Below, in pieces: positions 1,820 to 24,025 of a stretch of DNA of 64,000 nucleotides. Both the position numbers and the translations under genes were made by a program. Position 1 is the first letter of the stretch. Each line of letters begins with the position of its first letter. Source of the DNA: a virus. The notes under the pieces were generated by a model. The model saw nothing but the letters and a program-made list of their open reading frames with translations, was not told the origin of the DNA and did no database searches. The DNA is taken from positions 60,280-124,279 of IMG/VR virus record IMGVR_UViG_3300036792_000284. The stretch is one strand, 5' to 3'.

Positions 1820-2053
1820 CTACCCGGCGTCCGCGAGGGCCTGGCGGACCAGGGCGTCCTTGGCGTCGACCAGCCGCTGCAGCCCGATGGTCAGCTGCGG
1901 CCCGTCGCCGAGGATTTCGAGCAGCTCGTCCCGCAGGTCGCGGAACATGTAGGCCACCGCAGCGGGCGCACCGGCCGGAAGGTTGGGGTTCGGCTCAAGC
2001 CACAGGGCCTTCTCCTGCGTGGCCCCGTGACGGCCGGTCAGGTCGGTACTCAT
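1820..2053 (-). CDS. Small helical-hairpin protein, possibly Acb2/Tad1-like
   Basis: ATG 2053 overlaps dnaX stop; LLEILGDGPQLTIGLQRLVDAKDALVRQAL resembles the widespread P.GPE.T.GLRKLLEAKD.VRA pattern. Confidence 0.5.
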   Translation of the reverse strand: MSTDLTGRHGATQEKALWLEPNPNLPAGAPAAVAYMFRDLRDELLEILGDGPQLTIGLQRLVDAKDALVRQALADAG

Positions 2054-3201
2054 GCGTGCTCCATGATGCTTTTCATCTCGGCGAGGGAGGCCGGGCCGGC
2101 CTGCTCCGGAGCGATCGGTGCCGGAGGTGGGCACAGACGGCGGCCGACCTCGGATATGGCCAGCGACAGGGCCGTCTCGCGGTCGTCCACCCGCACCTTG
2201 GTCTGCAGGTCCCACAGCACGTGCATCGCCGCCGACACCCGCCCCGCCCCGAGACGGCCGATAAGCTCCTGGCGGGCGGCGAGCGCCTGCCCCTGCGCGG
2301 CGACGTCTCCCCCGCAGGCCAGCACCAGCAGGTCCCGCAGGCACCGGACCAGCTCGCGGGTGACGTGCCCGGGGTCGCCGTGGGCCGACAGCGCCTCGTC
2401 CACCGCGGCGTACATGGCAGTGGCGTTGCCGTCGGCGGCGGCGGTCAGCAGCGCGGGTGCGAAGTCGGTCTCCCCGGTCAGCTCGCGCCACATCTCCAGG
2501 GAGCCGATGCCGACGCTGGCCACCTGGTCGAGCCGCACCACGGCGTCGCGCATCGCCCCGCCGCTCGCCTCGGCGATGGCGGTCAGCAGCGCGGGCTCGG
2601 TCGAGAATCCCTCGGCCTGGCAGATGTGCGCCAGCCGGTCGCGGATGACGGGCACCGTCAACGGGTCGAACCGGAACGGGCTGCAGCGGCTGCGCACCGG
2701 CCTCGGCACCTTCTCGAACTGCGTGGTGACCAGGATGAACACCACGCCCGGCGGCGGCTCCTCAAGGACCTTCAGGATGGACTCGAACGCGGCGTCGGAC
2801 AGGCCGTGCGCCTCATCGATGATGTAGACCTTGTACTTCCCGCCAACCGAGCCGTAGTAGGCCCGCTCGCGGATAGCGCGGATCTCCGCCACCGTGCCGT
2901 TGCTGGCCGCGTCCAGCTCCTCCACGTCCAGGCTGGTGCCGTCGTCCACCGCCCGGCAGCTCGTGCACGCGCAGCACGGCCACTCGGCCGCCTTGCCCGG
3001 CGGGGTCTCGCAGTTGAGTGCCTTGGCCACGATGCGAGCCATGGTCGTCTTGCCCGACCCCCACTTGCCGTAGAACAGCATCCCGCCGGGCACGGTCTGA
3101 CGCTTGCACATCAGGTACAGCAGCGCCACCGCCGGCCGCTGCCCGGCGACGTCGCCGAACATGGCCGGGCGGTACTTCTGGGCCAGTGCGCCCTCGCTCA
3201 T
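2050..3201 (-). CDS. dnaX: DNA polymerase III clamp loader subunit gamma/tau (gamma-length, 383 aa)
   Basis: KYRP.F.DVAGQ, Walker A GKWGSGKTT, Zn CCACTSC, ELDAASN, IIDEAH, LKVLEEPP, SRC. Confidence 0.95.
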   Translation of the reverse strand: MSEGALAQKYRPAMFGDVAGQRPAVALLYLMCKRQTVPGGMLFYGKWGSGKTTMARIVAKALNCETPPGKAAEWPCCACTSCRAVDDGTSLDVEELDAASNGTVAEIRAIRERAYYGSVGGKYKVYIIDEAHGLSDAAFESILKVLEEPPPGVVFILVTTQFEKVPRPVRSRCSPFRFDPLTVPVIRDRLAHICQAEGFSTEPALLTAIAEASGGAMRDAVVRLDQVASVGIGSLEMWRELTGETDFAPALLTAAADGNATAMYAAVDEALSAHGDPGHVTRELVRCLRDLLVLACGGDVAAQGQALAARQELIGRLGAGRVSAAMHVLWDLQTKVRVDDRETALSLAISEVGRRLCPPPAPIAPEQAGPASLAEMKSIMEHA

Positions 3202-3455
3202 TCAGGCCTCCTCGTGATGGTGGTGCCGAGAAACACCGGGGCCGCGGCGGCAGGCTCCCGGACTTCGACAGGCAGACCGGCCGCGCAGACCGGACCCGGC
3301 TGCACCGCGCGGCGGTGCCCGAACTCGGCGCCGCAGTCCTCATCGCTACAGGCGAAATAGACGACGTCGCCGTCCTGCTCGGGCTCTGCCACCCCGCCGC
3401 ACTGCGGGCAGCTGGCGCTCTTCTCGAAAAACGCGGGCTCAGGCGGCCTGGTCAA
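3198..3455 (-). CDS. Small Zn-ribbon protein
   Basis: CPQC...CSDEDC; stop overlaps dnaX start. Confidence 0.6.
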   Translation of the reverse strand: MTRPPEPAFFEKSASCPQCGGVAEPEQDGDVVYFACSDEDCGAEFGHRRAVQPGPVCAAGLPVEVREPAAAAPVFLGTTITRRPE

Positions 3456-3570
3456 CGGCCTGCTCTGGCTCCAGCTCGGCGGGCGCGGGGACCCGGGTGA
3501 ATCCAGGTCCCGCCCAGTTGTCGGTGTCGTCTGGCGCAGTCCCGAAAGGCTGGCCGTACTGGTGGGTCAT
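3439..3570 (-). CDS. Hypothetical 43-aa peptide
   Basis: ATGA overlap with radical SAM stop; MTHQYGQPFGTAPDD...; fills the gap. Confidence 0.35.
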   Translation of the reverse strand: MTHQYGQPFGTAPDDTDNWAGPGFTRVPAPAELEPEQAVDQAA

Positions 3571-6512
3571 TGTGCAGCCTGGGATATCCACAGGTCCCTC
3601 CACAGGGTGTGAAGATCGGGTACCTGTAATACGCCGACCCCCGCGAGCGCCGCGATTACCTTCCCTTCGGCTTCGTCAGCGCACCGCGGGCAGAACTGCC
3701 CGGGCCAGGGGACGTCCAGCAGGTTGGAGGGCACCGGGAGCCCGCACCCCTCGCAGGCCTGCGCGCCGCCGGAGAAGAACTCGCGCCGCCAGGCGGTGTA
3801 CCGGGCCGCCTCGATCGCGCTGGCCTTGCCCGTCAGCGCGGCGTAGGCCTGGTACGGCCCGAGGCTGCCGTGCAGCATCATGCGCAGCACCGTCCGCTGG
3901 CCGTCGCGGACCACCCAGAAGTCGGACACGTGCTCCTTGGCGTCGCCGGGCTTGGCGGTCGCTCCGGTGTAGAAGCTGTCCGCGCGAATCAGGACCGGCA
4001 CCTGCTCCGCCGCGTCCCACCACCGCAGCCGCCGGGCGAGCACCGCGGCGTCGTCGGCCACCTCCAGGTCCCACAGGCTCTGCGGGCGGGCCGGCAGCTT
4101 CGCCGCGGCCGGGAGCACCTGGTAGTTTCCGCCCCAGCGCAGCCACGGGTGCAGGTGGACGGCAGCTTTAATCAGGAACTCGCCGATGTCGCACTGGTCC
4201 GCCACGCGGGTCAGCCCGAACTCCACGTAGTCCGTCCCGGCGCTGCGCTCGCGGTACCCGGTGCCGCCGGAGGCCAGCCGCACCGACTGACTGGCGATGG
4301 CCGGGAACGGCTCCGCCTCCTGCCGCCGCGCGCGCTCGGCCATGGCCGGGGCTGCCCGGAAGGCGGCACGCCGGAAGGTGAACTCCAGCGACTCGTTGGT
4401 GACGAACCGGAACTTCTCCGGCCGCTCCACCCGCATCCGGACCACCTGCGCGACCGTGGAGTGGTCGAGCGGCTGCACCGGCTCGGCCGCCAGGTCGCGG
4501 TCCACGGCTTGGACGTAGGCTCGGCGCAGCTCCAGGTCCTTGCGGTCGCATGCCCCGCAGGCGGTGCCGCTGCACTGCTGGTCGCACCGCGGCACCCATT
4601 CGTTGCCGTGATACCCGCCGGTTATATCACTGTCATATGTCTCGGCGTCGGTGCCTTCCAGCAGCTCCACCATGTCGCGGTAAACCCGCCACATGAGGGA
4701 CTTCTTCACGCCGGTGTCGATCATCTCCCAACCGAGCAGGTCCTCGTAGAACCGCTCGCCGAAGATGTCGTCCAGCCCGTTGCGGAACCCGTGGCTGACC
4801 ATGGCGGCGTCCAGCCGCTCGCGCATGTCCTTCGGGAACCCGCCCCACGACGCGGTGCCGTAGCCCTCGATAACGTCCACGATGGCCTCGCCCGCGTCCC
4901 GGCTGGCCCGCTGGCACGCCTGGAAGAACGCCATCTTGGACGGCGACGCCTTGCTCCCGATCTTCACCCAGACCCGATGATGGACCATCAGCTCCTTGAA
5001 CGCCTCGGCCAGCATGTAGTCGGGCGGGGTGACGGCGAACCACTGCATCGGCGTCTGGGACTCGATCAGCAGCGGGGTCCAGGAGAAGATGATCTGCACG
5101 CCCTTGGCGGCCTCGCCGAACGAGTCGCGGATGTCGGCCAGCCGCTTGCCCAGGTCCACGACCCGCATCACGTCGGCGCGCTCCTCGCCCGGCCAGTTGC
5201 TGATGAAATACAGCTTGATCTTGCGGATGCCGGCCCGGATCGCCTGCGTGACCGCCTTGGCCACGTCGTCGTCAGAAGTGCCCTTGCCGGCCAGGTCGCG
5301 CATCAGCTGCGACCCGCCCTCTAGGCCGAAGGTGACGGACCTGGTGCCGGATACCTGCAGCAGCAGGGAGAAGTCGCCGTCGCTGGTGTAGTCGTCGATC
5401 CGCATGGACGACGCGTCCACCTTGTCGGTGACCTGTTCCAGCAGCGCCGCAATCAGTGCCTTCTTCCGGGTGTGCATCGGCGGGTCGGGGGCGACCAGGC
5501 TGATATCGACCGAACCCATGTTCCGGCGCCACTCCCGGGCGCGCGCCAGTGTGCGCTCTTCGCCCTCCTGGACATAGGGCTTGTTCACCCAGGAGATTTT
5601 GCAGAATGAGCACCAGGCCGGGCAGCCGCGGCCGATCTCGACATCCCCTGAGCCCATGCCCGGGTCGGAGAACAGCACCGGCGCCGACGTCATCAGGTTC
5701 GCCTGGCTGAGGTCGCGGACGCGCCGGGACCGGAAGCTCGTGCCGAGGCCGGGCAGCAGCGAACGGTAGCCCGCCACCATCTTGGTCGGCTCAGGCAGCC
5801 CGCGGTCCTCGTAGCGGTAGTCCACCGCGGTGAACCGCGGGAAGTACAGGTAATTAAACTCGCGGGCCAGTTTGGTATAACAAGACTCCCGCGCAGCGGT
5901 CCATGTTCCGTCCTGCTTAAACTGGGCGATCCGCTCGCACACCGCGGCAATGCCGGGGTTGCCCGGTTCGTCTTCGGCCTCGCCCAGCCACACGCAGTCG
6001 ACCACCGGAGCCATAAACTCCGGGGCGCACCAGGCCTGACCGCCGACCACGACCATCGGGTAATCCTCGGCGTGTCGCGTCCGGTCCTCCCAGCGCAGCG
6101 GGACGCCGCTCATGGTCAGGAACTTGCAGAAGTTCATGAACAGCACCGTGTAGCTGATGCTGGTGCCCACCACGTCGAAGTCGGCCATCTGGTGCCGCGA
6201 CTCGATGCCGAACACCGGCACCTGGGCCTTTTCCAGCAGATCCATGTCCCGCTGGGTGGCGGGCAGGTACCAGCGGTCGGCCAGGCAGTACGTCTCCGCC
6301 TTGTGGATCGCGTCGTACAGCGCCGGGACGGCCATGTTGCCGGCCGCCTGGCTGTAATCCCAGGACGCGGCCAGCAGCCAGCGCACCCGCGCCTCGTCCC
6401 ACGGGCGGCGGGCGGCGTTCGGCTCGGTGCCCAGCATCTGGGCCGGCCCGTCGAGCCGGTAGCTGTTCTCGTCCAGCCACCGGGCGATCGACTCAGGGCT
6501 CCGGCCGGGCAT
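3567..6512 (-). CDS. TIGR03960-type radical SAM protein fused to a DUF2344/TIGR03936-like domain and a C-terminal Zn ribbon
   Basis: FGIESRHQMADFDVVGTSISY, PMVVVGGQ, EIGRGCPAWCSFC (CxxxCxxC), SMRID, GLEGGSQLMRD, CSGTACGAC, then VRMRVERPEKFRFVTNESLEFTFRRAAFRA; CEGC/CPRC at the end. Confidence 0.85.
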   Translation of the reverse strand: MPGRSPESIARWLDENSYRLDGPAQMLGTEPNAARRPWDEARVRWLLAASWDYSQAAGNMAVPALYDAIHKAETYCLADRWYLPATQRDMDLLEKAQVPVFGIESRHQMADFDVVGTSISYTVLFMNFCKFLTMSGVPLRWEDRTRHAEDYPMVVVGGQAWCAPEFMAPVVDCVWLGEAEDEPGNPGIAAVCERIAQFKQDGTWTAARESCYTKLAREFNYLYFPRFTAVDYRYEDRGLPEPTKMVAGYRSLLPGLGTSFRSRRVRDLSQANLMTSAPVLFSDPGMGSGDVEIGRGCPAWCSFCKISWVNKPYVQEGEERTLARAREWRRNMGSVDISLVAPDPPMHTRKKALIAALLEQVTDKVDASSMRIDDYTSDGDFSLLLQVSGTRSVTFGLEGGSQLMRDLAGKGTSDDDVAKAVTQAIRAGIRKIKLYFISNWPGEERADVMRVVDLGKRLADIRDSFGEAAKGVQIIFSWTPLLIESQTPMQWFAVTPPDYMLAEAFKELMVHHRVWVKIGSKASPSKMAFFQACQRASRDAGEAIVDVIEGYGTASWGGFPKDMRERLDAAMVSHGFRNGLDDIFGERFYEDLLGWEMIDTGVKKSLMWRVYRDMVELLEGTDAETYDSDITGGYHGNEWVPRCDQQCSGTACGACDRKDLELRRAYVQAVDRDLAAEPVQPLDHSTVAQVVRMRVERPEKFRFVTNESLEFTFRRAAFRAAPAMAERARRQEAEPFPAIASQSVRLASGGTGYRERSAGTDYVEFGLTRVADQCDIGEFLIKAAVHLHPWLRWGGNYQVLPAAAKLPARPQSLWDLEVADDAAVLARRLRWWDAAEQVPVLIRADSFYTGATAKPGDAKEHVSDFWVVRDGQRTVLRMMLHGSLGPYQAYAALTGKASAIEAARYTAWRREFFSGGAQACEGCGLPVPSNLLDVPWPGQFCPRCADEAEGKVIAALAGVGVLQVPDLHTLWRDLWISQAAQ

Positions 6513-6982
6513 CAGCCAGTCCCGCCGGATTTCCGGAAAAGAGCTGCTACGACGGCAGGGTAGCTGTCGCCGGTCGCCTGGACCCAGGTTCGCATCTGGC
6601 AGTTCAGCGTGATGACCCAGCGCGGCACCTTGGCGACCGGCCCCCCGTCGGCGCGAACGGGAATCCTGTCGAACCCGTCCATGCGACGGCTCAGGCTAGC
6701 CCCCGGGATATCCGCGCTCCCGAACACCGTCAGCCCCGCCGGGCCGCGAAAACCGATGGTGACCCACTCCGGGGAGTCGATCCCGGCGGTGAACCGGGCC
6801 TCGTTGTGAGCACGCTGGTAATCCGTGTCCCCGTAATACCACAGCGGGCACCCGCTGCCACTCTCGTTGAAGACGACCCCGAGGCCTTCCTCAAAGGTGA
6901 ATGACCACGACGTGCGCTTCGGAGCCCCGGCGTGGTCGATGCGGTCCGCGACCCGGCGCAGCAGTGCGGCGACCCGTCTCAT
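6512..6982 (-). CDS. Hypothetical protein
   Basis: 156 aa ORF coupled to both neighbours. Confidence 0.6.
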   Translation of the reverse strand: MRRVAALLRRVADRIDHAGAPKRTSWSFTFEEGLGVVFNESGSGCPLWYYGDTDYQRAHNEARFTAGIDSPEWVTIGFRGPAGLTVFGSADIPGASLSRRMDGFDRIPVRADGGPVAKVPRWVITLNCQMRTWVQATGDSYPAVVAALFRKSGGTG

Positions 6983-7650
6983 TCAGCTTCTCCCTCGAAC
7001 GCCTGCGTTACCCCGCCCGGGCCGAGCGCGAAGCGGACCTGCATGTCGGCGTACTCGGCATAAACCGGATCGTGGGTAATCATAACGACCTGCATGTCGG
7101 CCCGGTCGGCGATCTCGCGCAGGAACCGGGCCAGCGGCTGGCGGTAGACCGCCGACACGTGCGCGAACGACTCGTCCAGGAAGATGATCTTCCGCGCGGT
7201 CGGCGTGAGCAGGATCATGACCAGCCGGAGGATGGCGCCGACCACCACGACCATGCCGCCGCCGCGGGCGTCCATCACCGGCGTCTCGGTCACCGTGCCG
7301 TTGTAGTCGGACCGGATGACCGGCTCCAGCGTCGCCTGCCCGCCACTCTCGCCGGGTACCAGGCGGAAGGACAGGCTCTCGCCGAAGATGGACTGCAGGG
7401 CCTGCGTCGCCAGCTCCTCGAACTGGGCCCGCGCGCTCTCCTGCGCCTCCTCGCCGATCGAGGTCAGCAGCGCGGCCACCTTGGCGTGAAGGTCTACCTG
7501 CGCCGCGAGGCGCTCGATCTCGGCCTCGGCGGCCTGACCTGCGGTGGCTACCTGCTGTGCGCGCCCGGCCTGGCGGTCCAGGTCCCGGCGGCGCTGGCGG
7601 ACCTCGGCGGCGAGCGCGGCGACGTCAGTCAAGGACGGACCCACTGCCAC
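6979..7650 (-). CDS. sbcC: SbcC/Rad50 C-terminal half (signature, Walker B, D-loop, H-loop)
   Basis: N-terminal coiled coil, DARGGG signature, IIFLDESFAHVS, VVMITHD; no Walker A. Confidence 0.85.
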   Translation of the reverse strand: MAVGPSLTDVAALAAEVRQRRRDLDRQAGRAQQVATAGQAAEAEIERLAAQVDLHAKVAALLTSIGEEAQESARAQFEELATQALQSIFGESLSFRLVPGESGGQATLEPVIRSDYNGTVTETPVMDARGGGMVVVVGAILRLVMILLTPTARKIIFLDESFAHVSAVYRQPLARFLREIADRADMQVVMITHDPVYAEYADMQVRFALGPGGVTQAFEGEAE

Positions 7651-7781
7651 TCGGCCAGGTCCCCGGAGCGGCGGGACAGCCAGTCAGCGAAGTCTGACGG
7701 CGTGTCGAACGTGACCTTCCGCTCCCCGTCGGTGACGGCAGCTCTCTCGCCGGTCCGGAACGCCTCGTTGGTGATACTCAT
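7629..7781 (-). CDS. Hypothetical 50-aa protein
   Basis: MSITNEAFRTGERAAVTDGERKVTFDTPSDFADWLSRR...; start abuts upstream stop. Confidence 0.45.
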   Translation of the reverse strand: MSITNEAFRTGERAAVTDGERKVTFDTPSDFADWLSRRSGDLAEWQWVRP

Positions 7782-8227
7782 CAGGAAACCGCCGGCTCCT
7801 TGAGCAGGTGCATCTCCGTGGCGCGGTCACGTGCCAGCTCCTCGGCGAACAAGACCGGCTTCCCGTGCAGCACCGCGTAGACGATCTCTCCGGCCGTGGA
7901 GTCGCCGAAATAGCCGTCAGCGCTAGACACGACGTACACGTAGTCGGCGAGGTCAATCTTGCGCTTGTGCAGCTCGTCGAGCGTGATCTTCTCCTGCGAG
8001 TCGTGGCCCACGCCCTCCCCGTGACCGTGCTCGGCCTTGGCGTGAGGGTAGAACCCGACAGACAGGACGATCTGGCCCTGCATGGTCAGCTCGTAGTTCG
8101 CCCGCTGGAATTCGTCGTAGAAGCGCGTGGAGCCGCACAGGCACACTATGCGCGGGCGCTCGCCGCCGAAGTCGCGGACTAGGGCGTGGTGCTCTTCGCA
8201 GTCACCTGAGTAGTGCGGGTAGCTCAT
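7781..8227 (-). CDS. Nucleoside deoxyribosyltransferase-like fold protein
   Basis: IVCLCGSTRF, LDELHKRKIDLADYVYVV, YFGDSTAGEIVYA...GKPV. Confidence 0.65.
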   Translation of the reverse strand: MSYPHYSGDCEEHHALVRDFGGERPRIVCLCGSTRFYDEFQRANYELTMQGQIVLSVGFYPHAKAEHGHGEGVGHDSQEKITLDELHKRKIDLADYVYVVSSADGYFGDSTAGEIVYAVLHGKPVLFAEELARDRATEMHLLKEPAVS

Positions 8228-9406
8228 TTACTTTCCTTCCTTGTAACCGACCAGGCGTGACACCATCTGCGTGCAGATGCCCGTCACCCCGGCCGCCTTG
8301 TCTTCCAGCAGCAGGTGCGGCAGCGCCTTGCCGCGAGGCTTCCCGAGCCTGAACTCGCAGAACGGGCCCGGGTGGGCCGACAGCATGGCGCCCAGGAACG
8401 CAGCGTTGACCACCAGCCCGTGGTGGCCGCCGTCCCACGTCGCGGCGATGACCTCCTCGGCCCCGTTGTTGGCGGCGTCGCGGGACATGACGGTCAGCAC
8501 CGGCTTCGCCCCGGTGCTGTCGGCGATGAGCGCCACGGCGGACGTGCTCGCGTCGGAGTTGATCCGCACCCGGCGCAGCGCCCCGGCCAGCTCCGCCTTG
8601 TCGACGCCCAGCAGCATGTCGTTGCCTGCTGCGAGCCGCAGGAACGTGCTGTCGACGTCCGGGAACGCGTGGTTCATCTTGAGCATGGCCAGCGTGACCA
8701 CGCCGACCCGGAACACCACGTACGACCCGGAGTCGGCCACCGCCACGTCGTCCACCGGGTTTTTCAGCAGCTTCAGCAGGTCGTCGAGCACGCCGCCGGG
8801 GATGCACAGCGGCACCGGAAACCCGGGAACCGGGCACTGGGCGAACTGGCTGCTGTCGGCCGCGCGGGCATACATGACGCCGCCCGCCTCGGCGATGCTC
8901 ACCTGCCGGGACGACGGGCGCCCGTCGTCCTTGCCGACCGCGTGCTTGACCGTGTTCAGCGCCGCGAGCAGCTTCTCACGGCTGACAGGGGCGAACTGCG
9001 CGCCGGACAGGTCGGGCAGTTCGGTGTACCCGTTCGGGCTGAACAACTTCAGCGACCAGGTAGCCGACCCCGCGGTCACCAGGGCAGTCATGCCTTTCAC
9101 CGACACGGTAACGTCGCCGTCCGGCGCCTCGCCCAGCATCGCCTCCAGCTTCCTGGCCGGCAGGAGGACCTCGCCCTCGCTCTGGGCGGTCACCGCCGGG
9201 GTCTCGGCGAAGACAGCCTGCCGCTGGTCGCTGGCGGCCAGCATCAGCCGGCCGGGGCCCACGGTGACCTTGAAGCACCCGTTCGCCGGCAGCGTCGGCG
9301 ACGACGGGACGGCGGGCAGCGCCCACTTGGCCAACTGGGCCAGGTGCCCCGTGCGGACCGTGAACTCAAAGGCGCCGTAGTCGGTGCCGCCCTGCACTTC
9401 GCTCAC
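8228..9406 (-). CDS. dnaN: DNA polymerase III beta sliding clamp
   Basis: 392 aa three-domain layout; LMLAASD, VLLPARKL, YTELPD, YARAADS, FPDV, LAGALRRV, VNAAFL. Confidence 0.9.
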   Translation of the reverse strand: MSEVQGGTDYGAFEFTVRTGHLAQLAKWALPAVPSSPTLPANGCFKVTVGPGRLMLAASDQRQAVFAETPAVTAQSEGEVLLPARKLEAMLGEAPDGDVTVSVKGMTALVTAGSATWSLKLFSPNGYTELPDLSGAQFAPVSREKLLAALNTVKHAVGKDDGRPSSRQVSIAEAGGVMYARAADSSQFAQCPVPGFPVPLCIPGGVLDDLLKLLKNPVDDVAVADSGSYVVFRVGVVTLAMLKMNHAFPDVDSTFLRLAAGNDMLLGVDKAELAGALRRVRINSDASTSAVALIADSTGAKPVLTVMSRDAANNGAEEVIAATWDGGHHGLVVNAAFLGAMLSAHPGPFCEFRLGKPRGKALPHLLLEDKAAGVTGICTQMVSRLVGYKEGK

Positions 9407-9654
9407 TGCGTGCCTCCTGCTATTGCGAGCAGCCGCCGAACCTCGGCCGCCTCGGCTTCCATTTGCTGCCTCAGGTCCGCGAGCATCGTGCGCGCGGCCT
9501 GCACGGTGGTTACGCCGAACTCGGCCTGCAGGTCACCGCGGGCCGCCTCGGCCCTTGCCTGTGCCTGCACCAGCCCGGCCTCCGCGAGCGCGTGCCGCTG
9601 CGCCGCGGCGGTTACCTCGCCGCGCAGCTTCGCTACCGTCTCCTCGATGCCCAT
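9403..9654 (-). CDS. Small coiled-coil protein
   Basis: MGIEETVAKLRGEV... heptad pattern; CGTAGTAG motif 5 nt upstream of ATG. Confidence 0.65.
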   Translation of the reverse strand: MGIEETVAKLRGEVTAAAQRHALAEAGLVQAQARAEAARGDLQAEFGVTTVQAARTMLADLRQQMEAEAAEVRRLLAIAGGTQ

Positions 9655-9662
9655 GACCGCTA

Positions 9663-10496
9663 CTACGCCGAGATCGCGGCGAGGGAGACCCGGCCGGGCC
9701 TGCGCTTGAACTTGGGGCAGACGCGCTGGACGTCGCACCAGGAGCAGCCCGCGTCATCCGCTTTTGGGGCGAGGCGGCCCGCCCAGATGTCGTGCGCCGT
9801 CTTGGTGATGCGGCTGGCCATCTGCCGCACCGCGGCGGCGTCCACCGTCACCGGGAGCACCGGCTGGGTGCACATCGGCTGGATGAGCCCGGTGATGACC
9901 GGGAGCTGCCCGTGCTCGGCCCGCACCGCCAGGGCGTAGAACGCCAGCTGGCCGAGCACCTTCTTGTAGTACTGGTCATCGCGGGTGGCCTTCAGGTCCC
10001 ACACCGCGTACCGGCCCTCCCCGTCGCGCACCTTCAGGTCCATCTCGCCGATGAGGGCAATCTCGCGCATCGACCCGTCGAAGTAGGGGACCGAGACGGG
10101 CACCTCGAACCGCACCGCGGGGTGGTAGTCAAACGGCAGCGCGTACTTGACCAGGATGGGCTCCAGGCGCACCACCAGGTCACGGCAGAACTGCAGGGTC
10201 TCCGCCTTGTCGTTGAGGCCCTTCCACCGGACGATGCCGTCCCCGGTGTCTTTGGCGATCTGCTCCGCCTCCTCGAACAGCAGATCAACCTGAGTGGCCA
10301 TCCACCCCGGCTCGGGGTTGTCCTGGTCCAGCCAGCGCCGCATGAGCAGGTCGACCACGTTGCCATGGAAGAAGTTGCGGATGTCCTGGTAAGGCGACCT
10401 GGCCTTACGCATCAGCGGATACTTGGCCGGGCACTCGTCGTGCGACCGCAGGTGCGACCAGGACAGACGCAACGGCGCGGCGCCAGAATCACTCAC
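9663..10496 (-). CDS. PD-(D/E)XK nuclease, AddB/Cas4-like Fe-S staple
   Basis: LSWS...CPAKY, HGNVV, FE, GEMDL, VWDLKA, QLAFYA, CSWCDVQRVC. Confidence 0.85.
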   Translation of the reverse strand: MSDSGAAPLRLSWSHLRSHDECPAKYPLMRKARSPYQDIRNFFHGNVVDLLMRRWLDQDNPEPGWMATQVDLLFEEAEQIAKDTGDGIVRWKGLNDKAETLQFCRDLVVRLEPILVKYALPFDYHPAVRFEVPVSVPYFDGSMREIALIGEMDLKVRDGEGRYAVWDLKATRDDQYYKKVLGQLAFYALAVRAEHGQLPVITGLIQPMCTQPVLPVTVDAAAVRQMASRITKTAHDIWAGRLAPKADDAGCSWCDVQRVCPKFKRRPGRVSLAAISA

Positions 10497-14170: not shown

Positions 14171-14209
14171 CGGCGGGGCCCAGGGCGCTAAGCACCTGGC
14201 GCCCCGCCG
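14171..14209 (-). terminator. GC-rich stem-loop
   Basis: CGGCGGGGC/GCCCCGCCG arms in the intergenic gap. Confidence 0.5.
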
Positions 14210-14215
14210 GATCTG

Positions 14216-15385: not shown

Positions 15386-15416
15386 GCCAGCCTCCTCGCG
15401 TAGTCCTGCCTACCTA

Positions 15417-16478: not shown

Positions 16479-17058
16479 TGAGTGCCTCCTTCTTGAGCGC
16501 CGGCCAGGCGATAGCCGGGTGCGCCGGCTTGCCCTTCTTGGCCGGCACGATGTCGGTCAGCACGGCACGCTGGTCTGCCGGCATCTTCACCAGCGGGAAC
16601 CCAGCCCAGTCCGCGCCCATGGCGGCCAGGGTCAGCGCGTCAGCGGTGTCGTTGCCGGTGATCCCGGCGTCAGGGAACCTCTTGAGGGCGGCGATCAGGC
16701 AGTCCTCTTTGCTCGCGTTAGCCCGGCCGGTGATGAACTTGGCCCGCTGGAACGGGCTAATGACGACATACGGCACCTTGAGCTGCCACAGCCGGTGCGT
16801 GAGCACGCCGAACAGCCCGGCCAGGTCCAGCAGCGACCGGCCTTTAGCGCCCATGGCCAGCCCTTCCACAACCGCGAAGTCGCAGCTGGCAGCGGTGACT
16901 TCCACGTTGTCGAGCAGCCACTGCATGCGCTCGTGCCCGAGCCCGAGCCGTGCCCCCGGGCGCCACCTGTGCAGCTCCACCGCGGAGCCCGGATCGGAAC
17001 TAACCCGGGCTCCGCCGAAAGAGGTCAGCGACTGATCGAGACCTAGGACGGTGGTCAC
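16471..17058 (-). CDS. ruvC: RuvC-like Holliday junction resolvase
   Basis: [33 protein letters not shown]. Confidence 0.8.
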
Positions 17059-18272
17059 TGCAAGTCGTCGAGCCCGTTGAGGATGTCCTTGAACGACTGG
17101 GCACCGGGCGTGGCGCCGTTCGCGCCCACTGCGGCCGGGACCGGAGCCGCCGGGGTGTCGTCGCTGCCGAAGAGGTCGTCATTGGCGACAGGGGCCGGCG
17201 CCGGAGTTGCGACCGCCGCAGCCGGAGTGTCGTCGCTGCCGAAGAGGTCGTCATCGGCGACAGGGGCCGGCGCCGGGGCGGCTGTCCGCTCAGGCGAGGC
17301 GAACTCGTCCAGGTCGTCCAGCGGCCCAGGTCGGTCCGGGTCACCCAGCAGGTCGTCCAGGCCGCCGTCCAGGCTCAGGGCCTGCTCGCCGGTGGACAGG
17401 TAGCCGTTTCCGGTCTTGCTCGGCGCTGGGCTCTTGCCCCAGTTCACAGCCTGGTGCCAGCGCGCCTCCGCGTCGCGGATGTCCCGGTCTATCCAGTCCC
17501 GGGTCGACGTCCGGCCGCAGGCGGCCTGCAGCTGCTCCTCGGTCGGCCGGTTCTCCACGACGCCCCACAGGCCCTGGATGACCGCCTTGACCGCGCGGCC
17601 GGCGTCCGAGTCGTGGCGCCAGGCACTTGGCATCGGCCAAATCTTGTCGATCTTCTGGTAGCCGTTCTCATTGGAGACGCAGATGTCGCACATTTGCAGC
17701 TTGACCGCGGCAGCGTCCTCCAGGTTCAAGAGCGCCGCCATCTGGCGCCGGATGCCGTCCACCTGCTCCCAGGACCACTGGGAGAGAGCCCAGACGAAAA
17801 TCTCGGCGTTGGGCGGGTTCCGCAGCTTCCCGTCAGGCTCGCCCTTCTTCTGGGTCGCGTACCGGATGACCGGGACGGCGTACCGCTGCTGCGGCCTCAG
17901 GTCCCGGGCGTCCGCAATGCCGGCGTCGAGCATCCGCTTGACGCCCGCGCACGCCGGGCAGCCGTCGGCGTCCAGCTCCTGCGTCGCGATGACGTCCGGG
18001 TCCCCGAGGCAGATCGGGGCGCCGATAAAGCCGCCCTCTTCCATGTCAAAGACGAGCCTGACCGCGCCCCTGACCTTCTTCTCCACCTGCAGCGGCTTCC
18101 CGTCATCCGCGAAGACGGGCGCCTTGATGTTGTGCCTGAACTCCATCCAGGCATAGTCCTGGTTCGGAATCCAGAGCCGGTGGCCTTCGTGCCGCTCCAG
18201 CTTCAGTTGCTCGAACCTGTCGACCTGGTTGCCCTCGCGGAACGCGCCGGCAGCGAGCGATACTCTCGGCAT
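17055..18272 (-). CDS. gp32-like single-stranded DNA-binding protein
   Basis: H...ICLG...CPAC Zn site, QRYAVPVI, long acidic tail; lies between recombination and replication genes. Confidence 0.7.
   Translation of the reverse strand: MPRVSLAAGAFREGNQVDRFEQLKLERHEGHRLWIPNQDYAWMEFRHNIKAPVFADDGKPLQVEKKVRGAVRLVFDMEEGGFIGAPICLGDPDVIATQELDADGCPACAGVKRMLDAGIADARDLRPQQRYAVPVIRYATQKKGEPDGKLRNPPNAEIFVWALSQWSWEQVDGIRRQMAALLNLEDAAAVKLQMCDICVSNENGYQKIDKIWPMPSAWRHDSDAGRAVKAVIQGLWGVVENRPTEEQLQAACGRTSTRDWIDRDIRDAEARWHQAVNWGKSPAPSKTGNGYLSTGEQALSLDGGLDDLLGDPDRPGPLDDLDEFASPERTAAPAPAPVADDDLFGSDDTPAAAVATPAPAPVANDDLFGSDDTPAAPVPAAVGANGATPGAQSFKDILNGLDDLQ
17147..17276. repeat. 72-bp-period duplication in the SSB tail
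   Basis: Two copies encoding PAPAPVA(D/N)DDLFGSDDTPAA. Confidence 0.9.
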
Positions 18273-18327
18273 TTGCTGTCTCCTGACTTGTAGCCCTGCC
18301 CACTAATACGCCCGGCCGCCGACATTC

Positions 18328-18531
18328 CTAGTGATCAGACACGAGCCTGATTGCCTGCGTCTCGGGGTTGAACTCGATGCGGTCGACCTTGTACCACCAG
18401 CGCTCCACCGGGTCGGGGATCTGCAGTTCGCACGCCCCGAACTCGTTCTGGATGCGCTCGATCTCCTCGATGGCTTCCGTTGAATTCACGACCGTCCTTC
18501 CAACCAGCGAATTTGGCGGAGGGATCGTCAC
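18328..18531 (-). CDS. Hypothetical protein
   Basis: GTGA overlap; WWYKVDRIEFNPE. Confidence 0.55.
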   Translation of the reverse strand: MTIPPPNSLVGRTVVNSTEAIEEIERIQNEFGACELQIPDPVERWWYKVDRIEFNPETQAIRLVSDH

Positions 18532-19037
18532 GTCTCCAGGGACGACTTCCACGGGAAGTAGTGCTCCAGCGCGGTCAGCAGCTCGCGCCGGATGTCACGC
18601 AGGCCGAAGAACATGCCGTCCATGGCGTCCTCGGCCTCCTCCACCAGGTCCAGCACCCGCTCGGCGGCAAGCTGGGCACGGCGCTTCGGGGAGGCCTTCA
18701 CCCGGGCCAGCACCTCGCGGTCCCGGACGCTCTCGTACTCCCGGGTGACCGCACGGCCCGACAGCCGGGCCAGCTCCGTGTCGTACACCTCGTCAGCCTC
18801 GGCACGCAGCCGCCGGGCCGTGCGTTGCGCCTTGCGCTTGTACCCGGCCATCTCCCGCTTGAGTTCCTCGGCCCGGTCCAGCCGCGCGCGCAGGTCGTCG
18901 CGAAGGGCCTCGTGCACCTCCGACGGGTCCGCGTCCGCCGCGGGGACGTCGAAATCGCGCAGCCCGGCCATCTCCCGCAGTAGCACGGCGCACGCGTCCT
19001 CGATCGACTGCTCGCGGTCGTCGAGAACCTCGTTCAT
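18528..19037 (-). CDS. Helical protein, possible UvsY-like recombination mediator
   Basis: 169 aa all-helical, beside SSB/RecA; fold assignment is inference. Confidence 0.4.
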   Translation of the reverse strand: MNEVLDDREQSIEDACAVLLREMAGLRDFDVPAADADPSEVHEALRDDLRARLDRAEELKREMAGYKRKAQRTARRLRAEADEVYDTELARLSGRAVTREYESVRDREVLARVKASPKRRAQLAAERVLDLVEEAEDAMDGMFFGLRDIRRELLTALEHYFPWKSSLET

Positions 19038-19363
19038 TCGGCCGGTGCCGCTGCGGCCTCCGGCGGCACCGGCCGCGGGGCGTACTTGTCCAGCAGGTTT
19101 TCACGCGCGGCACGCGCCGCGCTCGCGGCAGCGGCGTGCTGCCCCCGCTGCTCGGGCTCTGCTTTAGCCAGCGAGAAGTGGACGAACCACTTCCCCTCGG
19201 CGTCCATGATCCGGCCCACGTCGGTGGTGGTCATACGCAGACGGACCTGCTCGGGGTCGGCCACGCCGCGCTCGAAGAGCATCCGGAGGATGTCCGTCTC
19301 CTGCACCGCGATGTCCCACTTGTTCTTGCCGTAGTCGGTAGCCCAGCCAATTCGGATTTCCAT
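19034..19363 (-). CDS. Hypothetical protein
   Basis: 109 aa; TGTAGTAA motif 5 nt upstream of ATG. Confidence 0.6.
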   Translation of the reverse strand: MEIRIGWATDYGKNKWDIAVQETDILRMLFERGVADPEQVRLRMTTTDVGRIMDAEGKWFVHFSLAKAEPEQRGQHAAAASAARAARENLLDKYAPRPVPPEAAAAPAE

Positions 19364-19371
19364 GCCTGTTA

Positions 19372-21837
19372 CTACAGCTCAGCGGCGGCGGTCAGCGCAG
19401 CGGCGTCAGCCACGTCGTAGTGCACCGCCGCGCCGCCGAGGATGACCGCGACGCGGGCCTCGTGGGCCGGCGTCAGCCCGCAGGTGAAGCCGACCGTGAG
19501 CGAGCCCTCCGGCAGCTGCAGCTCCACCGAATTCCCTCCGGGGAGGGACTTCATGAACCGGGCCAGTTCGGCCACCTGCTCGCGTGACGGGGCCTGCCGG
19601 AGCACGACGACCACCGCCCGGGGCGCCTCGGCCCCCGGCTCCGCAGGCGGCACGACCTTGCAGCGCGGGCACTTGTCCTTCTTGCCGAGCACGACCTGGC
19701 CGTCTTCGGTGTGGATGTCCTTCACCGAGCCCCAGGACCTGCCCAGGTGCCATTCGGCGACCATCTCCGGCCACGCCGCACCCGGCCCGGTGACCGGGTA
19801 GACGACCGCGGGCTGCAGCACGGCTATGACCGTCGCCGGCGGCACGTCCTCGCGCGCCTCGAACTCAAGCGCGTCGTGGACGTTCATGAACATGCGCACC
19901 CGGTCGTCCAGCCCGGCCGCCTGCAGGGCCTTCACCGCGCGGATCATGGAAATTTTGACGTACTCGCCGGTCGCCGGGCCCTGGATGACCGCGTTGCCCG
20001 CGGTGCGCTCCTCCGCGGCCCGTACTTTCGGGTTGTCGCTGCGAATGTCGTGCAAGGTGACGCGGCGCCCGAACTTGGTGATGACGTACCCGTCGCGCTT
20101 CGCCTTCGCGATGACCCGGCGCCGGAACGGCTGCATGTGCGGGTAGGCGGCCTGGTACTGCCGGTCCAGCTCCTGGGCCTCCTCCTCGCTGATGCCGAGC
20201 TGCTCGGCGAGCGCCCTGATGCCCTGGCCGTAGATGGCCGCGAAGTTCCTGGTCTTTCCCCGCTTGCGCGCCTCCTCGGTCACCTGCTCAACCGCGATCT
20301 GCAGCATCAGCGCGGCGGTGCGGCTGTGCACGTCCTCGCCCCGGGCGAACGATTCCAGCAGCGCCGTCTCGCCGGCCTCGGCTGCCATCACCCGCAGCTC
20401 GATCTGGCTGTAGTCGAACCCGATGACGTACCAGCCCAGCTCTGTCGGCTCGGGCAGGTCGGTGCAGCCTGCCTCCTCCAGCACGTGGTCCCACCACGGG
20501 CGGTAACCCGGCTCCGCCGCCACGATGGCGTCGCGGAAGTTGAAATCGAACGTCGTGCCGTCGCGCAGCTCGAAGTGGTACTTGCCCGGGCTCTGCTGGT
20601 AGTTGGGCGTCTCGCAGGAGAACCGGCCGGCGATGGTGCCGTGCTGCATCAGGGTCGGATGCGCCCGGCCGTCGGCGGCCCAGGAGTACTTGTCCTCGTA
20701 GATGCTCAGGAAGTTGGTGTGCAGCGTAGTCAGCCGGGCCCAGCCCATGTACTTCCGGACCACGGGGTAGTCCTTGGCCAGGCCGGGCAGCGCGTTCTTG
20801 GCGTCTACGCTGGGCTTCCCGCCGGGCGTCCGGTGCAGCACCGGCATGCCGCACTTGTTGTAGAGCAGGTCGGCGAACTGGGCACTGGAGTTGAAGTTGA
20901 AGTCCGGCGGCAGCATCTCGCCGGTAATCTCCCCGAAGTCCTCGACAATCTCCGCCAGCAGCCGGCCGGAGAACTCCTGCACCTCCGCCGCCTTGGCGCG
21001 CAGCAGGTTCCAGTCGTACCGGACCCCGTTGTCGGACATCGAGCAGACGATGGGCAGCGTGGCCATCTCTACCTTGTAGATGAACGCCTGCGGGCCGGCC
21101 ACCACCTTCGGCCAGCGGTCCAGGTGGTGGCGCAGCGCCCATACCGCGTCCTCGCACGCGTAGGCGATGACCTCCGGGTCAGTCGGGTCGAAGACGCCGA
21201 ACCGGACCGTCTTGCCCTCCTGCCGGGTCGGCACCCGGCCGAGCAGGCGGCCGAGCAGGCTGTCCGATCCGTTGATCAGCTCGCGCATCTTGTGGCCGTA
21301 GTTGTCGAACGTGGCCGCCTTGAGGCCGTGGCTCTTGTTCTTGCCCTCGGCGAAGCTCTCCAGCAGGCCGTCCGACCGGATCGGGTAGTACCCGTGCGCC
21401 TCGCGGACCTGCTTGCCGAACAGCGGGTGGTCCCACAGCAGCCGCAGGAACCACCGCGACAGCCAGCGCAGTTCAGCAGGCGCGCCCCACGGCACCCCGA
21501 GCGGCAGGCCCTGGTCGTCGGTCACGTGGAGCAGGGCCCACATCCAGGCCGCGACCGGCTTGTTATCGACGTTGGGGCCGGAGTCAAACGCCAGGGGGAT
21601 CATCCGGCCCCAGGCCAGGGAGTTGGTGAACTGGACGGAGACGACGTAGTTCTCCTCCGGATGCAGCGCGGCGCCCTCCCGGCTCTCCCCGTAGTAGCCG
21701 GTCTCGACGTCGAACCCGAACGGCAGCTTCGCGTCGGCGACCGCCTGCAGCCGGTCCCGGATCTCGTCCAGGTCAGTCAACAGGTCGTAGCTGGGCGCCG
21801 TCTCAGGGGCTTCAAGTACCGCAGCCGTCACAGCCAT
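19372..21837 (-). CDS. polA: Family A DNA polymerase (3'-5' exo plus pol) with extra C-terminal domain
   Basis: ExoI FDVET, ExoIII YACEDA, GTIAGRFS..PNYQ, motif A DYSQIELR, motif B RKRGKTRNFAAIYG, motif C VHDA; GAGGAGGAG SD. Confidence 0.95.
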   Translation of the reverse strand: MAVTAAVLEAPETAPSYDLLTDLDEIRDRLQAVADAKLPFGFDVETGYYGESREGAALHPEENYVVSVQFTNSLAWGRMIPLAFDSGPNVDNKPVAAWMWALLHVTDDQGLPLGVPWGAPAELRWLSRWFLRLLWDHPLFGKQVREAHGYYPIRSDGLLESFAEGKNKSHGLKAATFDNYGHKMRELINGSDSLLGRLLGRVPTRQEGKTVRFGVFDPTDPEVIAYACEDAVWALRHHLDRWPKVVAGPQAFIYKVEMATLPIVCSMSDNGVRYDWNLLRAKAAEVQEFSGRLLAEIVEDFGEITGEMLPPDFNFNSSAQFADLLYNKCGMPVLHRTPGGKPSVDAKNALPGLAKDYPVVRKYMGWARLTTLHTNFLSIYEDKYSWAADGRAHPTLMQHGTIAGRFSCETPNYQQSPGKYHFELRDGTTFDFNFRDAIVAAEPGYRPWWDHVLEEAGCTDLPEPTELGWYVIGFDYSQIELRVMAAEAGETALLESFARGEDVHSRTAALMLQIAVEQVTEEARKRGKTRNFAAIYGQGIRALAEQLGISEEEAQELDRQYQAAYPHMQPFRRRVIAKAKRDGYVITKFGRRVTLHDIRSDNPKVRAAEERTAGNAVIQGPATGEYVKISMIRAVKALQAAGLDDRVRMFMNVHDALEFEAREDVPPATVIAVLQPAVVYPVTGPGAAWPEMVAEWHLGRSWGSVKDIHTEDGQVVLGKKDKCPRCKVVPPAEPGAEAPRAVVVVLRQAPSREQVAELARFMKSLPGGNSVELQLPEGSLTVGFTCGLTPAHEARVAVILGGAAVHYDVADAAALTAAAEL

Positions 21838-21886
21838 CTCCTCCTCGGGGGAACAAGCACCGCATAGCCGTATACGGCAGTCCCGC

Positions 21887-22825
21887 TCACCAGCCCGCGA
21901 CCAGGGACTCCGCCACGCCGTCGCGGGCGCCGGACCGCCAGGCAGAATCTGCCTGCGCCAGCCGCTGGCGGCAGCGGCGCACGCGGTCGGCGTCGTAGCT
22001 CCGGGCGTACCGGGCCACCTGGCTGGCCACGAACCGGCTGACGTCCTGGCCGGCTACCGCCTCGTGCAGCGAGAGCCCGGCCCGCAGTCCCGCGCCGACC
22101 TGCTCGACGGCGGCCAGCCGCACGGTCAGCAGGCCGATGACCGCGCCCAGCTCGCCGGGCCCGACCCGGCCGGCCGCCGCCATCGCCGCCCGCCTGCTCC
22201 CGGCCATCAGGTGGTCAGCCAGCTCGCCGCCGGGCTCGGCCGGGCAGGTCACCGCGGCCGAGGGAGCCACCGGCTTCAGCCCGGCCAGCCGGGCCTGCTC
22301 GCACGCCTGCCAGGCCCGCTCCAGGCTCCCGCAGCGGGCCAGCACGTCATGCGCGAAGCCGGCCGACGCGCCCGGCCACCAGGAGGCGACCAGGGCCACC
22401 CGGTCCTCCAGTTTCGACGGCTCGCAGCACCGGATCATCTGGCCCGACTTCGCGGACTTCAGCGTGACCAGGTGCGGGGCGAGCGCCCCGTCCTCCTGCG
22501 CGAAGTCACCGTCGCCGGAGACGAACACCACGTAGGCGGTCGCCAGGGCCTCCTCCCCGGTAAGCAGGTCCATGTCGGAGGTGTTCTTCAGCTTCTCCGC
22601 GCCGTAGACCACGGCCCTCCGGCCGCCGCCCGGCGGGACCGACAGCAGGTGGTTCCAGATGTCCTGCTCGGGGACGTCCCCGGCGAACAGCGCCACGCAC
22701 TGGTCCGCCGCCGCGCCCTCACGGTGCGCGGCCACCACGTCCCGCACGAGCACCGGCTCGGGGCCGCACACCCACGTGACCCGGCGGACAGGCCTGCTCC
22801 GGCTCCACTGCAAATACGTAGCCAT
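21887..22825 (-). CDS. holA: DNA polymerase III delta subunit-like
   Basis: WVCGPEPVLV, LLSVPP..RRAVV..AE, C-terminal RFVASQVARYARSY....LAQADSAWRSG...ESLV. Confidence 0.75.
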   Translation of the reverse strand: MATYLQWSRSRPVRRVTWVCGPEPVLVRDVVAAHREGAAADQCVALFAGDVPEQDIWNHLLSVPPGGGRRAVVYGAEKLKNTSDMDLLTGEEALATAYVVFVSGDGDFAQEDGALAPHLVTLKSAKSGQMIRCCEPSKLEDRVALVASWWPGASAGFAHDVLARCGSLERAWQACEQARLAGLKPVAPSAAVTCPAEPGGELADHLMAGSRRAAMAAAGRVGPGELGAVIGLLTVRLAAVEQVGAGLRAGLSLHEAVAGQDVSRFVASQVARYARSYDADRVRRCRQRLAQADSAWRSGARDGVAESLVAGW

Positions 22826-22830
22826 GCCTT

Positions 22831-23316
22831 CTAATGCGTGCGAGGGCGCAGCATCCCCGTCTGAGCGGCCAGCTGGCGGATCATCTCGGGCGAGTAGCGG
22901 CCTCCTTCGGCCAGCTGCATGCGCTGGGTCGCCTGGCCGGCCCCGGCCAGCTCCTCCGCAATCTGCATCTCGAACCGCAGGCGTGCCAGCATCGCCCACC
23001 GCGGCCCCTCCGGGCCGGCGAACGACGAGATCGAGTCGATGAGACTGTTGATCCGGGCATGCACCAGGTAGAGCGGGTCCGGGGAGGTGCCCTGCCGGGC
23101 CAGCTCCTCGAACCTCGCCTGGTTGGCGGCTACCGCCTGCTCGAACTGCGCCTGCAGCACGTCCAGGGAGGGCATCACCGCGGGCTGGGCCACCTGACCC
23201 TGCTGGACGTTAGGGCCCGGCTGGAAACTGCCCGCCGGGTGCTGCGGCGGGGGCGTGCTGTCGCCGGGCTGCACGCGGCGGGTCTTGCGGGGCTGGCCGT
23301 TGGGCTGCGAGGTCAC
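22831..23316 (-). CDS. Hypothetical protein (Q/P-rich N-terminus, helical C-terminus)
   Basis: 161 aa ORF in operon. Confidence 0.6.
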   Translation of the reverse strand: MTSQPNGQPRKTRRVQPGDSTPPPQHPAGSFQPGPNVQQGQVAQPAVMPSLDVLQAQFEQAVAANQARFEELARQGTSPDPLYLVHARINSLIDSISSFAGPEGPRWAMLARLRFEMQIAEELAGAGQATQRMQLAEGGRYSPEMIRQLAAQTGMLRPRTH

Positions 23317-23365
23317 GGGGGCTCCTTACGACGGGGGCGCAGTAACGCCTCAATCGCCCCGCCAA

Positions 23366-24025
23366 TCACTCCTGGCAGAAAACCCGGTCCAGCGCTACCA
23401 CCGCGCCGAGGCGGGCGCCGGGGTAGCGGGCCAGCTCGGCCAGCAACCGCAGCGCCTGGTCCCGGCTGACACCCGGCGCGAAGTCCGGGTCGAACACCTG
23501 CCACCGGCCGGTGGCGGCCTCAGCCGCCCACGCCGACAGGAGCCGGGCGTGGGCGGGCAGCCAGGTCCGGGCGGTCTGAGCAAGCAGGCCCGGCCGCCTC
23601 GCGCGTGCTGCCTTGATGGCCGCGCCGACGGCGGTCACGTCCTTCGGGTCCGGCTGCTCGACCTCCTGCGCCTGCCCGAGCACTAGCGTGCGGCATCGGG
23701 ACAGCACGGTCGGCAGCGGGCGCCGCTCCGCGGCGAGGATGAACCGGGTGTCCGCCGACGGCTTTTCCAGGACCTTCAGGAGCATGTTCTGCACCTGGGC
23801 ACTCGCGTTCGCCAGGTTCAGCGCGATGATCCGGAGCCCCCGCAGCGGGGCCATCCCCGCCTCGGCCCAGACCTCCCGGGCAGCGGCGGCGTCCAGCTCC
23901 CACCGGAACGCCCAGCCGTGGTCGGTGCACGCCTGGAACACCAGGGCCGCGGCGCCGGGGCCGACCACCAGGGTGGCCGGAGGCAGCTCGCCCGCCAACG
24001 CGGCGCGTACCTGCTCAGGAGTCAC
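23366..24025 (-). CDS. holB: DNA polymerase III delta-prime-like subunit
   Basis: NMLLKVLEKP...FILAA...LPTVLSRC; no Walker A lysine. Confidence 0.8.
   Translation of the reverse strand: MTPEQVRAALAGELPPATLVVGPGAAALVFQACTDHGWAFRWELDAAAAREVWAEAGMAPLRGLRIIALNLANASAQVQNMLLKVLEKPSADTRFILAAERRPLPTVLSRCRTLVLGQAQEVEQPDPKDVTAVGAAIKAARARRPGLLAQTARTWLPAHARLLSAWAAEAATGRWQVFDPDFAPGVSRDQALRLLAELARYPGARLGAVVALDRVFCQE

Follow-up and report, generated by a model that had tools for sequence, protein, structure and literature searches.

The DNA analyzed here (hereafter, the window) is a stretch of 64,000 nucleotides, bases 60280-124279, of the 124,279-bp IMG/VR virus record IMGVR_UViG_3300036792_000284, for which CheckV gives a completeness of 82%. 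The window has a GC content of ~70%, carries nearly all of its genes on the minus strand, and contains the replication module of an uncultured phage with high GC and a full genome of about 150 kb. This phage is distantly related to Microbacterium phage Magritte (OR553905, 133 kb), its nearest cultured relative, with identities of 35% for the family A DNA polymerase (PolA), 37% for DnaX, and 28-30% for DnaN. These three proteins and two further putative clamp-loader subunits, HolA-like (delta) and HolB-like (delta-prime), are each encoded by one open frame on the minus strand. The replicase that these five proteins might form is the subject of this analysis, and the features on which it is based are as follows (coordinates are those of the window):

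2050-3201, minus strand: DnaX, gamma-length clamp-loader ATPase, 383 amino acids (TIGR02397; PF13177, PF22608, PF12169)
2053-2133, minus strand: C-terminal Pro-rich linker (residues 357-369) and terminal peptide (residues 370-383) of DnaX, candidate tau-like tether
8228-9406, minus strand: DnaN, predicted divergent three-domain beta sliding clamp, 392 amino acids (PF00712, TIGR00663, PHROG 947)
19372-21837, minus strand: PolA, family A DNA polymerase, 821 amino acids (PF00476, 7.4e-75; Klenow alignment)
19375-19635, minus strand: PolA C-terminal domain, residues about 735-821, with a modeled fold closest to the tau-binding C-terminal domain of Pol III alpha
21887-22825, minus strand: delta (HolA-like), 312 amino acids from Met59 of a longer open reading frame (AlphaFold2 model, Foldseek)
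23366-24052, minus strand: delta-prime-like (HolB-like) protein, 228 amino acids, or 219 from the GTG at 24025 (NCBIfam, profile, hhalign)

The related genomes were retrieved from IMG/VR via the delta protein. As a single-sequence query, delta gave zero matches; an alignment-based scan yielded 13 loci, on records of 64-152 kb. Completeness is at least 96% in 10 of these 13 records, and terminal repeats are present in 2. Across the relatives, the genes for delta-prime, delta, PolA, and the SSB-like protein occur in this order, with the DnaB helicase and a small primase encoded upstream.

The clamp and its proposed loader

DnaX passes the cut-off of TIGR02397 (289.6 bits against 250) and matches PF13177 at 1.6e-32. 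It contains a Walker A motif (GSGKTT), a Walker B motif (DEAH), the SRC motif with R172 as the arginine finger, and a zinc module with four Cys residues; GSGKTT, DEAH, and SRC are invariant in 14 DnaX homologs. The protein stops ~40 residues past domain III and thus is not a tau subunit, which would possess folded domains IV-V that bind DnaB and alpha. The zinc module is missing, through a deletion of ~20 residues, from the DnaX proteins of two IMG/VR relatives (G009 and G010); the ATPase motifs are retained in both, as is the peptide at the C-terminus. The Magritte DnaX aligns to TIGR02397 in two pieces, positions 3-61 and 86-352, leaving profile positions 62-85 unmatched, and this split, the same as in G009 and G010, suggests that Magritte might carry the same zinc-module deletion.

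The HolA-like open reading frame had no match in Pfam, and by sequence, it matched TIGR01128 only (3e-6, below the cut-off). Its AlphaFold2 model, built with 42 homologs, has a predicted local distance difference test (pLDDT) score of 91.6. Among PDB structures, the best Foldseek match of the model was the delta subunit of Bacillus subtilis (3zh9, E = 2.6e-10), followed by Escherichia coli delta (8giy_A, 3glh_A, and 1jr3_D); across the matches of both species, the E values range from 2.6e-10 to 1.5e-8 and the TM-scores from 0.56 to 0.68. In the model, the HolA-like protein thus has the three-domain delta fold. Metagenomic data contain 93 homologs of this protein, at 40-67% identity.

The HolB-like protein has a degenerate P-loop without the Lys, and the acidic pair of Walker B is missing, but the SRC arginine (R119) is invariant; accordingly, it is a predicted ATPase-dead loader subunit that keeps the SRC arginine. 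The NCBIfam delta-prime models match it at E values of 4e-10 to 4e-9, below their cut-offs. When searched against the PDB, the family profile matched E. coli gamma/tau (1.6e-20) more strongly than delta-prime (5e-13). An hhalign comparison with gp18 of Streptococcus phage Dp-1 gave a probability of 97.3% (E = 2.3e-11), and gp18 has been named HolB (PMC4840434). DnaX together with a second, weak DnaX-like gene, which corresponds to delta-prime, was found in 14 of 14 relatives. The delta profile compared with Dp-1 gp19 in the same manner gave a probability of 0.1, that is, no detection; this says little because delta subunits are highly divergent.

DnaN matches PF00712 (2.7e-12) and PHROG 947, annotated as "processivity factor" (4.5e-38). 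Its score against TIGR00663 is 65.7 bits (E = 3.4e-18), below the cut-off of 137.65, and the alignment covers residues 14-354 of DnaN and positions 2-341 of the 367 in the profile. With this homology spanning three domains, DnaN is, by sequence, a full-length, divergent beta clamp. Homologs are encoded in 13 of the 14 related records, the sole exception being a 51%-complete fragment.

The family A polymerase

In PolA, motif A (DYSQIELR) and motif B (K..NF..YG) are kept in 14 homologs. The 3'-5' exonuclease motifs (D-x-E and Y-x-x-x-D) are present as FDVETGY and YACEDA and are conserved in the alignment. A 5' nuclease domain was not found in PolA by Pfam search, by inspection of the sequence, or in the homolog alignment; hence, PolA is not a Pol I-type enzyme for Okazaki fragment processing. 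Exactly one PolA is encoded per genome in the record, the 13 relatives, and Magritte.

An earlier note on this DNA, made from the letters alone, had assigned DnaX, DnaN, HolA-like, HolB-like, and PolA to the frames listed above, and these assignments agree with the open frames, the profiles, and the delta fold. The note also stated that the family A enzyme is the only polymerase in the window and that it lies directly downstream of holA. Both claims stand: neither PF07733 (DnaE) nor PF00136 (PolB) has a match anywhere in the 124,279-bp record or in Magritte, and the PolA gene begins 49 nt downstream of the delta gene. The check proposed there, a search for dnaE elsewhere in the genome, was extended beyond the whole record and Magritte to the 13 related IMG/VR records, and PF07733 had no match in these either. 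We considered a DnaE hidden in the missing 18% of the record and rejected this possibility, given that none is encoded in the 10 near-complete relatives or in Magritte. Separately, a close metagenomic PolA homolog (P0252, 1172 amino acids) was found to contain the homing-endonuclease domains PF05204 and PF14528, suggestive of an intein within the polymerase.

Every bacterial host cell contains DnaE, and the beta clamp and the gamma complex are the usual partners of family C polymerases. Conceivably, therefore, the phage clamp and loader could act on phage DNA by bringing in the Pol III core (DnaE) of the host, with PolA confined to gap filling or repair. We consider this very improbable. The phage DnaX is devoid of the tau domains IV-V that bind alpha and DnaB, so that a tau-like hold on host alpha is not possible, and PolA does not have the 5' nuclease that a Pol I engaged in gap filling would be expected to carry. 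Furthermore, the docking domain resembling that of alpha is predicted on PolA itself (see below), and autonomy is suggested by the phage's own genes for DnaB, primase, and an SSB-like protein. The combination of proofreading motifs, absence of a 5' nuclease, and status as the sole polymerase of the lineage rather indicates that PolA replaces Pol III alpha. Gene content and conservation, both of them read from sequence, make the assignment of PolA as the presumptive replicase that uses the phage clamp and loader well supported.

The PolA C-terminal domain and the DnaX tail

Past the polymerase domain of PolA, a variable linker leads to a C-terminal domain of ~90 residues that is conserved in 14 of 14 PolAs and, in the relatives, ends with an extreme tail of the form L-x-x-G-[LM]-x-L. 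The core of the structural model of this domain has a pLDDT of about 95-98. In a Foldseek search with the model, ranks 1-6, 8, and 11 were all occupied by Pol III alpha, with a best E value of 7e-3. The VIA wide search, which covered 48,161 chains, placed Thermus aquaticus (Taq) alpha residues 1127-1205 at the top (Z = 7.5, root mean square deviation 3.3 over 71 amino acids) and E. coli alpha residues 1076-1160 second (Z = 5.7, root mean square deviation 3.2 over 74 amino acids); the next match had a Z of 4.2. The aligner used in the VIA wide search is independent of Foldseek, and both methods rank Pol III alpha of two species first, with the matches falling on its tau-binding region. The tau contact on alpha has been mapped to residues 1097-1128 (PMC11869525). 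Based on the model, the PolA C-terminal domain appears to adopt the fold of the tau-binding domain of alpha and is a probable docking domain. A word-based search with the PolA C-terminal region gave 9 proteins; the fold accordingly rests on a 13-row alignment.

A candidate partner for this domain is the DnaX tail. In the alignment of the 14 DnaX proteins and that of Magritte, the Pro-rich linker is variable, and the 14-residue terminal peptide, with the pattern [RK]-x-S-[LI]-x-[DE]-[MIL], is kept in all 15. The peptide is thus found in all 15 genomes that carry the PolA C-terminal domain. Among outgroup DnaX proteins, it is absent in those of Dp-1 and Pseudomonas phage Lu11, and the DnaX of a Nodularia phage has a different C-terminal domain. 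The alpha-binding site of E. coli tau is located in its extreme, unstructured C-terminus (PMC1888804). By analogy, the linker and conserved peptide of DnaX recall the unstructured alpha-binding tail of tau and suggest a minimal tau. For three chains, DnaN, the 350-383 stretch of DnaX, and, as the partner, PolA residues 725-821, the median score of the complex prediction was 0.42. In the controls, replacement of the partner gave 0.00-0.01 and replacement of DnaN gave 0.38, so that the pass mark was missed; the prediction thus speaks neither for nor against binding.

These observations can be combined in the following scheme. The clamp loader would consist of the gamma-length DnaX, an active AAA+ ATPase, the ATPase-dead delta-prime-like protein, and delta, and would set the phage's own beta clamp onto primed DNA. 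The DnaX tail would hold PolA via the alpha-like C-terminal domain, and the clamp would supply processivity. The presence of an alpha-like fold on PolA together with the linker and peptide of DnaX makes DnaX acting as a minimal tau the most likely design. Overall, the replicase is probably PolA working with the phage beta clamp and the gamma/delta/delta-prime loader, with DnaX as a minimal tau. We infer three parts of this scheme: assembly of the loader, use of the clamp by PolA, and contact between the DnaX tail and the PolA domain. As to origin, the family A polymerase could have either acquired the tau-binding domain of family C or converged on it, with the tether rebuilt around the DnaX peptide as a minimal tau; we advance this scenario only tentatively.

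Several observations weigh against a PolA replicase of this design. First, motif C of PolA (residues 653-656, 19870-19881) is HDA rather than HDE, with Ala656 aligned to Klenow Glu883. HDA is found in 13 of the 14 related PolAs, HDE in one relative, and the aspartate is kept throughout; hence, one of the usual metal-binding carboxylates is missing in an otherwise well conserved clade. Second, a canonical clamp-binding motif (QL[SD]LF or QLxLxL) was sought in PolA and none was found, and the conserved extreme tail is only loosely similar to such a motif and is degenerate in the window PolA (ALTAAAEL). Third, a Z of 7.5 is within the reach of a common small alpha/beta fold, such that the similarity to alpha is suggestive but not conclusive. 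Searches with the domain by sequence yielded nothing in Pfam at E values up to 1 (13 members), nothing among PDB sequences at E values up to 10 (profile search), and nothing in phages by tblastn. Fourth, the DnaX tail and the PolA domain occur together in one clade, set against three outgroups; this association is not phylogenetically independent and is weak. Finally, the delta-prime-like protein is ~100 residues shorter than E. coli delta-prime.

Two other candidate contacts were examined and rejected. A search of PolA, DnaX, delta, and delta-prime for motifs of the QxxLxF type gave matches that fall within folded regions and show no conservation. The PolA N-terminus, with its conserved PSYDLL or NYG, was considered as a docking peptide and looks like the start of the exonuclease domain.

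The extreme tail of PolA also allows a different assignment of partners, in which the C-terminal domain would bind the clamp via insertion of the tail into the cleft of beta, with a different partner, for example DnaB, primase, or the SSB-like protein, for the DnaX tail. The L-x-x-G-[LM]-x-L tail at the end of PolA resembles hexapeptide clamp motifs; the Pol IV clamp motif, for instance, is QLVLGL. Moreover, E. coli tau binds DnaB too (PMC11470591). However, the degenerate tail of the window PolA has Ala in place of the Gly-Leu of its relatives, and the fold of the domain matches the tau-binding part of alpha and not the internal clamp motif of alpha. We rate this assignment as decidedly improbable.

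In the absence of a canonical clamp-binding motif in PolA, it is also conceivable that the clamp and loader mainly serve late transcription, recombination, repair, or DNA modification, with PolA being intrinsically processive. T4 gp45, as well as MuC of phage Mu with host beta, exemplifies the clamp as a mobile platform for late transcription. Clamps act as toolbelts, and a role of beta in the late transcription of a phage has been documented (PMC12867686). In line with such other roles, RecA, a RuvC-like protein, and a PD-(D/E)XK nuclease are encoded in the same module. Against it, PolA is directly preceded by the delta-prime and delta genes in Magritte and in the majority of the related loci that were examined, the PolA domain, as modeled, best matches the loader-docking domain of alpha, and a Pfam search gave no sign of another processivity device, for instance a UDG-like domain. 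Taken together, we regard a non-replicative role of the clamp as unlikely and favor the scheme in which the clamp and loader serve PolA.

Related systems and other genes of the window

The earlier note had put forward the PolA-based, beta clamp-driven replisome as a strong candidate for an undescribed system. As a reading of the replicase, this proposal is in line with gene content and conservation; the claim of novelty has to be dropped because Ma-LMM01, RSL1, and Dp-1 precede. Kazlauskas and Venclovas reported in 2011 that phages Ma-LMM01 and RSL1 encode PolA along with homologs of polIII-beta and polIII-gamma. Their proposal was that PolA is served by beta; they pointed to the reported stimulation of E. 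coli Pol I by beta and did not settle which subunits make up the functional loader (PMC3201878). The idea is the same, namely, PolA made processive by a phage beta clamp loaded by phage gamma. However, only gamma was found in those phages, whereas the present phage adds delta, delta-prime, and the docking-like PolA domain. The set is also present in Dp-1, Lu11, and the Nodularia phage. These PolA precedents also make the wording of the note, by which family C polymerases are the normal clients of beta and the gamma complex, too strict. Furthermore, a clamp-binding motif is present in bacterial PolA2 enzymes described in a 2026 survey (PMC12926913).

Streptococcus phage Dp-1 (NC_015274; also MS1) encodes DnaN (gp10), DnaX (gp17), two more genes annotated as loader subunits (gp18 and gp19), and one PolA, and no DnaE was found in it (these facts are drawn from the GenBank record and PMC4840434). 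The Dp-1 DnaX is 33% identical to that of the present phage, which likewise combines PolA, DnaN, DnaX, and two more loader subunits with no family C polymerase and is therefore of the Dp-1 type. In contrast to the present phage, Dp-1 has neither the alpha-like domain nor the tail: its PolA ends right after the polymerase domain and its DnaX ends at domain III. Dp-1 also differs in its 56-kb genome, its low-GC Firmicute host, and its motif C, which is the usual HDE. In the window, a PD-(D/E)XK (Cas4-like) nuclease (9663-10496, minus strand) adjoins dnaN, and in Dp-1, gp11 likewise follows the gp10 DnaN; this adjacency hints at an old module common to Dp-1 and the present phage. Lu11 and the Nodularia phage encode PolA, DnaN, and DnaX, and no DnaE was found in them. 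The Nodularia phage PolA stops at the polymerase domain; that of Lu11 has HDS as motif C and a helical C-terminal extension that, from its sequence, appears unrelated.

Magritte has the same gene set and order, with gp4 (DnaX), gp247 (DnaN), and gp62 (delta-prime) and gp67 (delta) upstream of gp69 (PolA). Both the C-terminal domain of PolA and the tail peptide of DnaX are present in Magritte, and no DnaE was found. In GenBank, gp4, gp62, gp67, and gp247 of Magritte are all labeled "ASCE ATPase," although DnaN is no ATPase, and under such labels, the clamp system is hidden from keyword surveys.

The Pol III holoenzymes of E. coli and Thermus likewise include beta, DnaX, delta, delta-prime, and a polymerase C-terminal domain with the alpha fold, and in these, the flexible C-terminus of the loader (tau) holds the polymerase, as the DnaX tail of the phage could do. 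The phage differs from the holoenzyme in that its polymerase belongs to family A and has proofreading in the same chain, and in that its DnaX has a linker and peptide instead of folded domains IV-V. Counterparts of chi, psi, epsilon, and theta were not seen in the phage, although no search aimed at them was made. T7 gp5 also relies on an accessory processivity factor, but this is host thioredoxin and no clamp is involved. The T4 gp43-gp45-gp44/62 system also combines a clamp with an AAA+ loader, but the polymerase is of family B, the clamp is a PCNA-like trimer, and the loader is RFC-like.

Thus, the gene set was already known, and what looks new is the alpha-like PolA domain and the candidate mini-tau peptide of DnaX. 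Our literature searches turned up no reconstituted PolA-beta-clamp replicase of this kind. The present clade is a deep new actinophage lineage for the design known in Dp-1, Lu11, Nodularia phages, RSL1, and Ma-LMM01, and it offers a concrete answer to the 2011 question of what the functional loader is and how it is coupled to PolA. If the tether is real, a docking module would be common to non-homologous polymerase families, and the phage would provide a very small model of polymerase-loader coupling. Because Magritte is cultured and grows on Microbacterium foliorum, the five proteins can be expressed and the tether can be tested directly.

Four further features lie near the genes discussed above:

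17055-18272, minus strand: SSB-like protein, 405 amino acids, homologous to and syntenic with Magritte gp72 (26% identity by tblastn, E = 7e-16)
22831-23316, minus strand: small open reading frame, 161 amino acids, flanked by the delta-prime and delta genes; N-terminus rich in Pro/Gln, C-terminus helical
27235-27714, minus strand: small primase homolog, 159 amino acids (32% identity by tblastn to Magritte gp59, annotated as "DNA primase"; E = 3e-18)
27779-29239, minus strand: DnaB-type replicative helicase, 486 amino acids (PF03796, 2.3e-15; 41% identity to Magritte gp51)

The SSB-like protein had no match in a Pfam search; Magritte gp72 is annotated as a single-stranded DNA binding protein, and the position of the gene downstream of PolA is kept in the relatives. 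The 161-residue protein had no match in Pfam, NCBIfam, or PHROG and has blastp matches in 7 of the 13 related loci, closer relatives only.

Among the remaining genes of the window, all on the minus strand, a conserved 398-amino-acid protein (24455-25651) is encoded upstream of delta-prime; no family match was obtained for it, and its N-terminus is sigma-like by eye only. A 235-amino-acid protein (31158-31865) has weak matches to sigma-70 region 2 and region 4. Between DnaX and DnaN lies a gene for a 981-amino-acid radical SAM protein (3567-6512) with an N-terminal PF19864 domain, PF04055, and a weak B12-binding match. The window also encodes a glycosyltransferase family 17-like protein (457-1800; PF04724, 4.8e-19), a DUF932 protein (48168-49238; 5.9e-29), and a 568-amino-acid protein (37301-39007) with coupling-protein domains of the TraG/TraD and TrwB type (PF12696, 7.5e-13), which is unusual in a phage.

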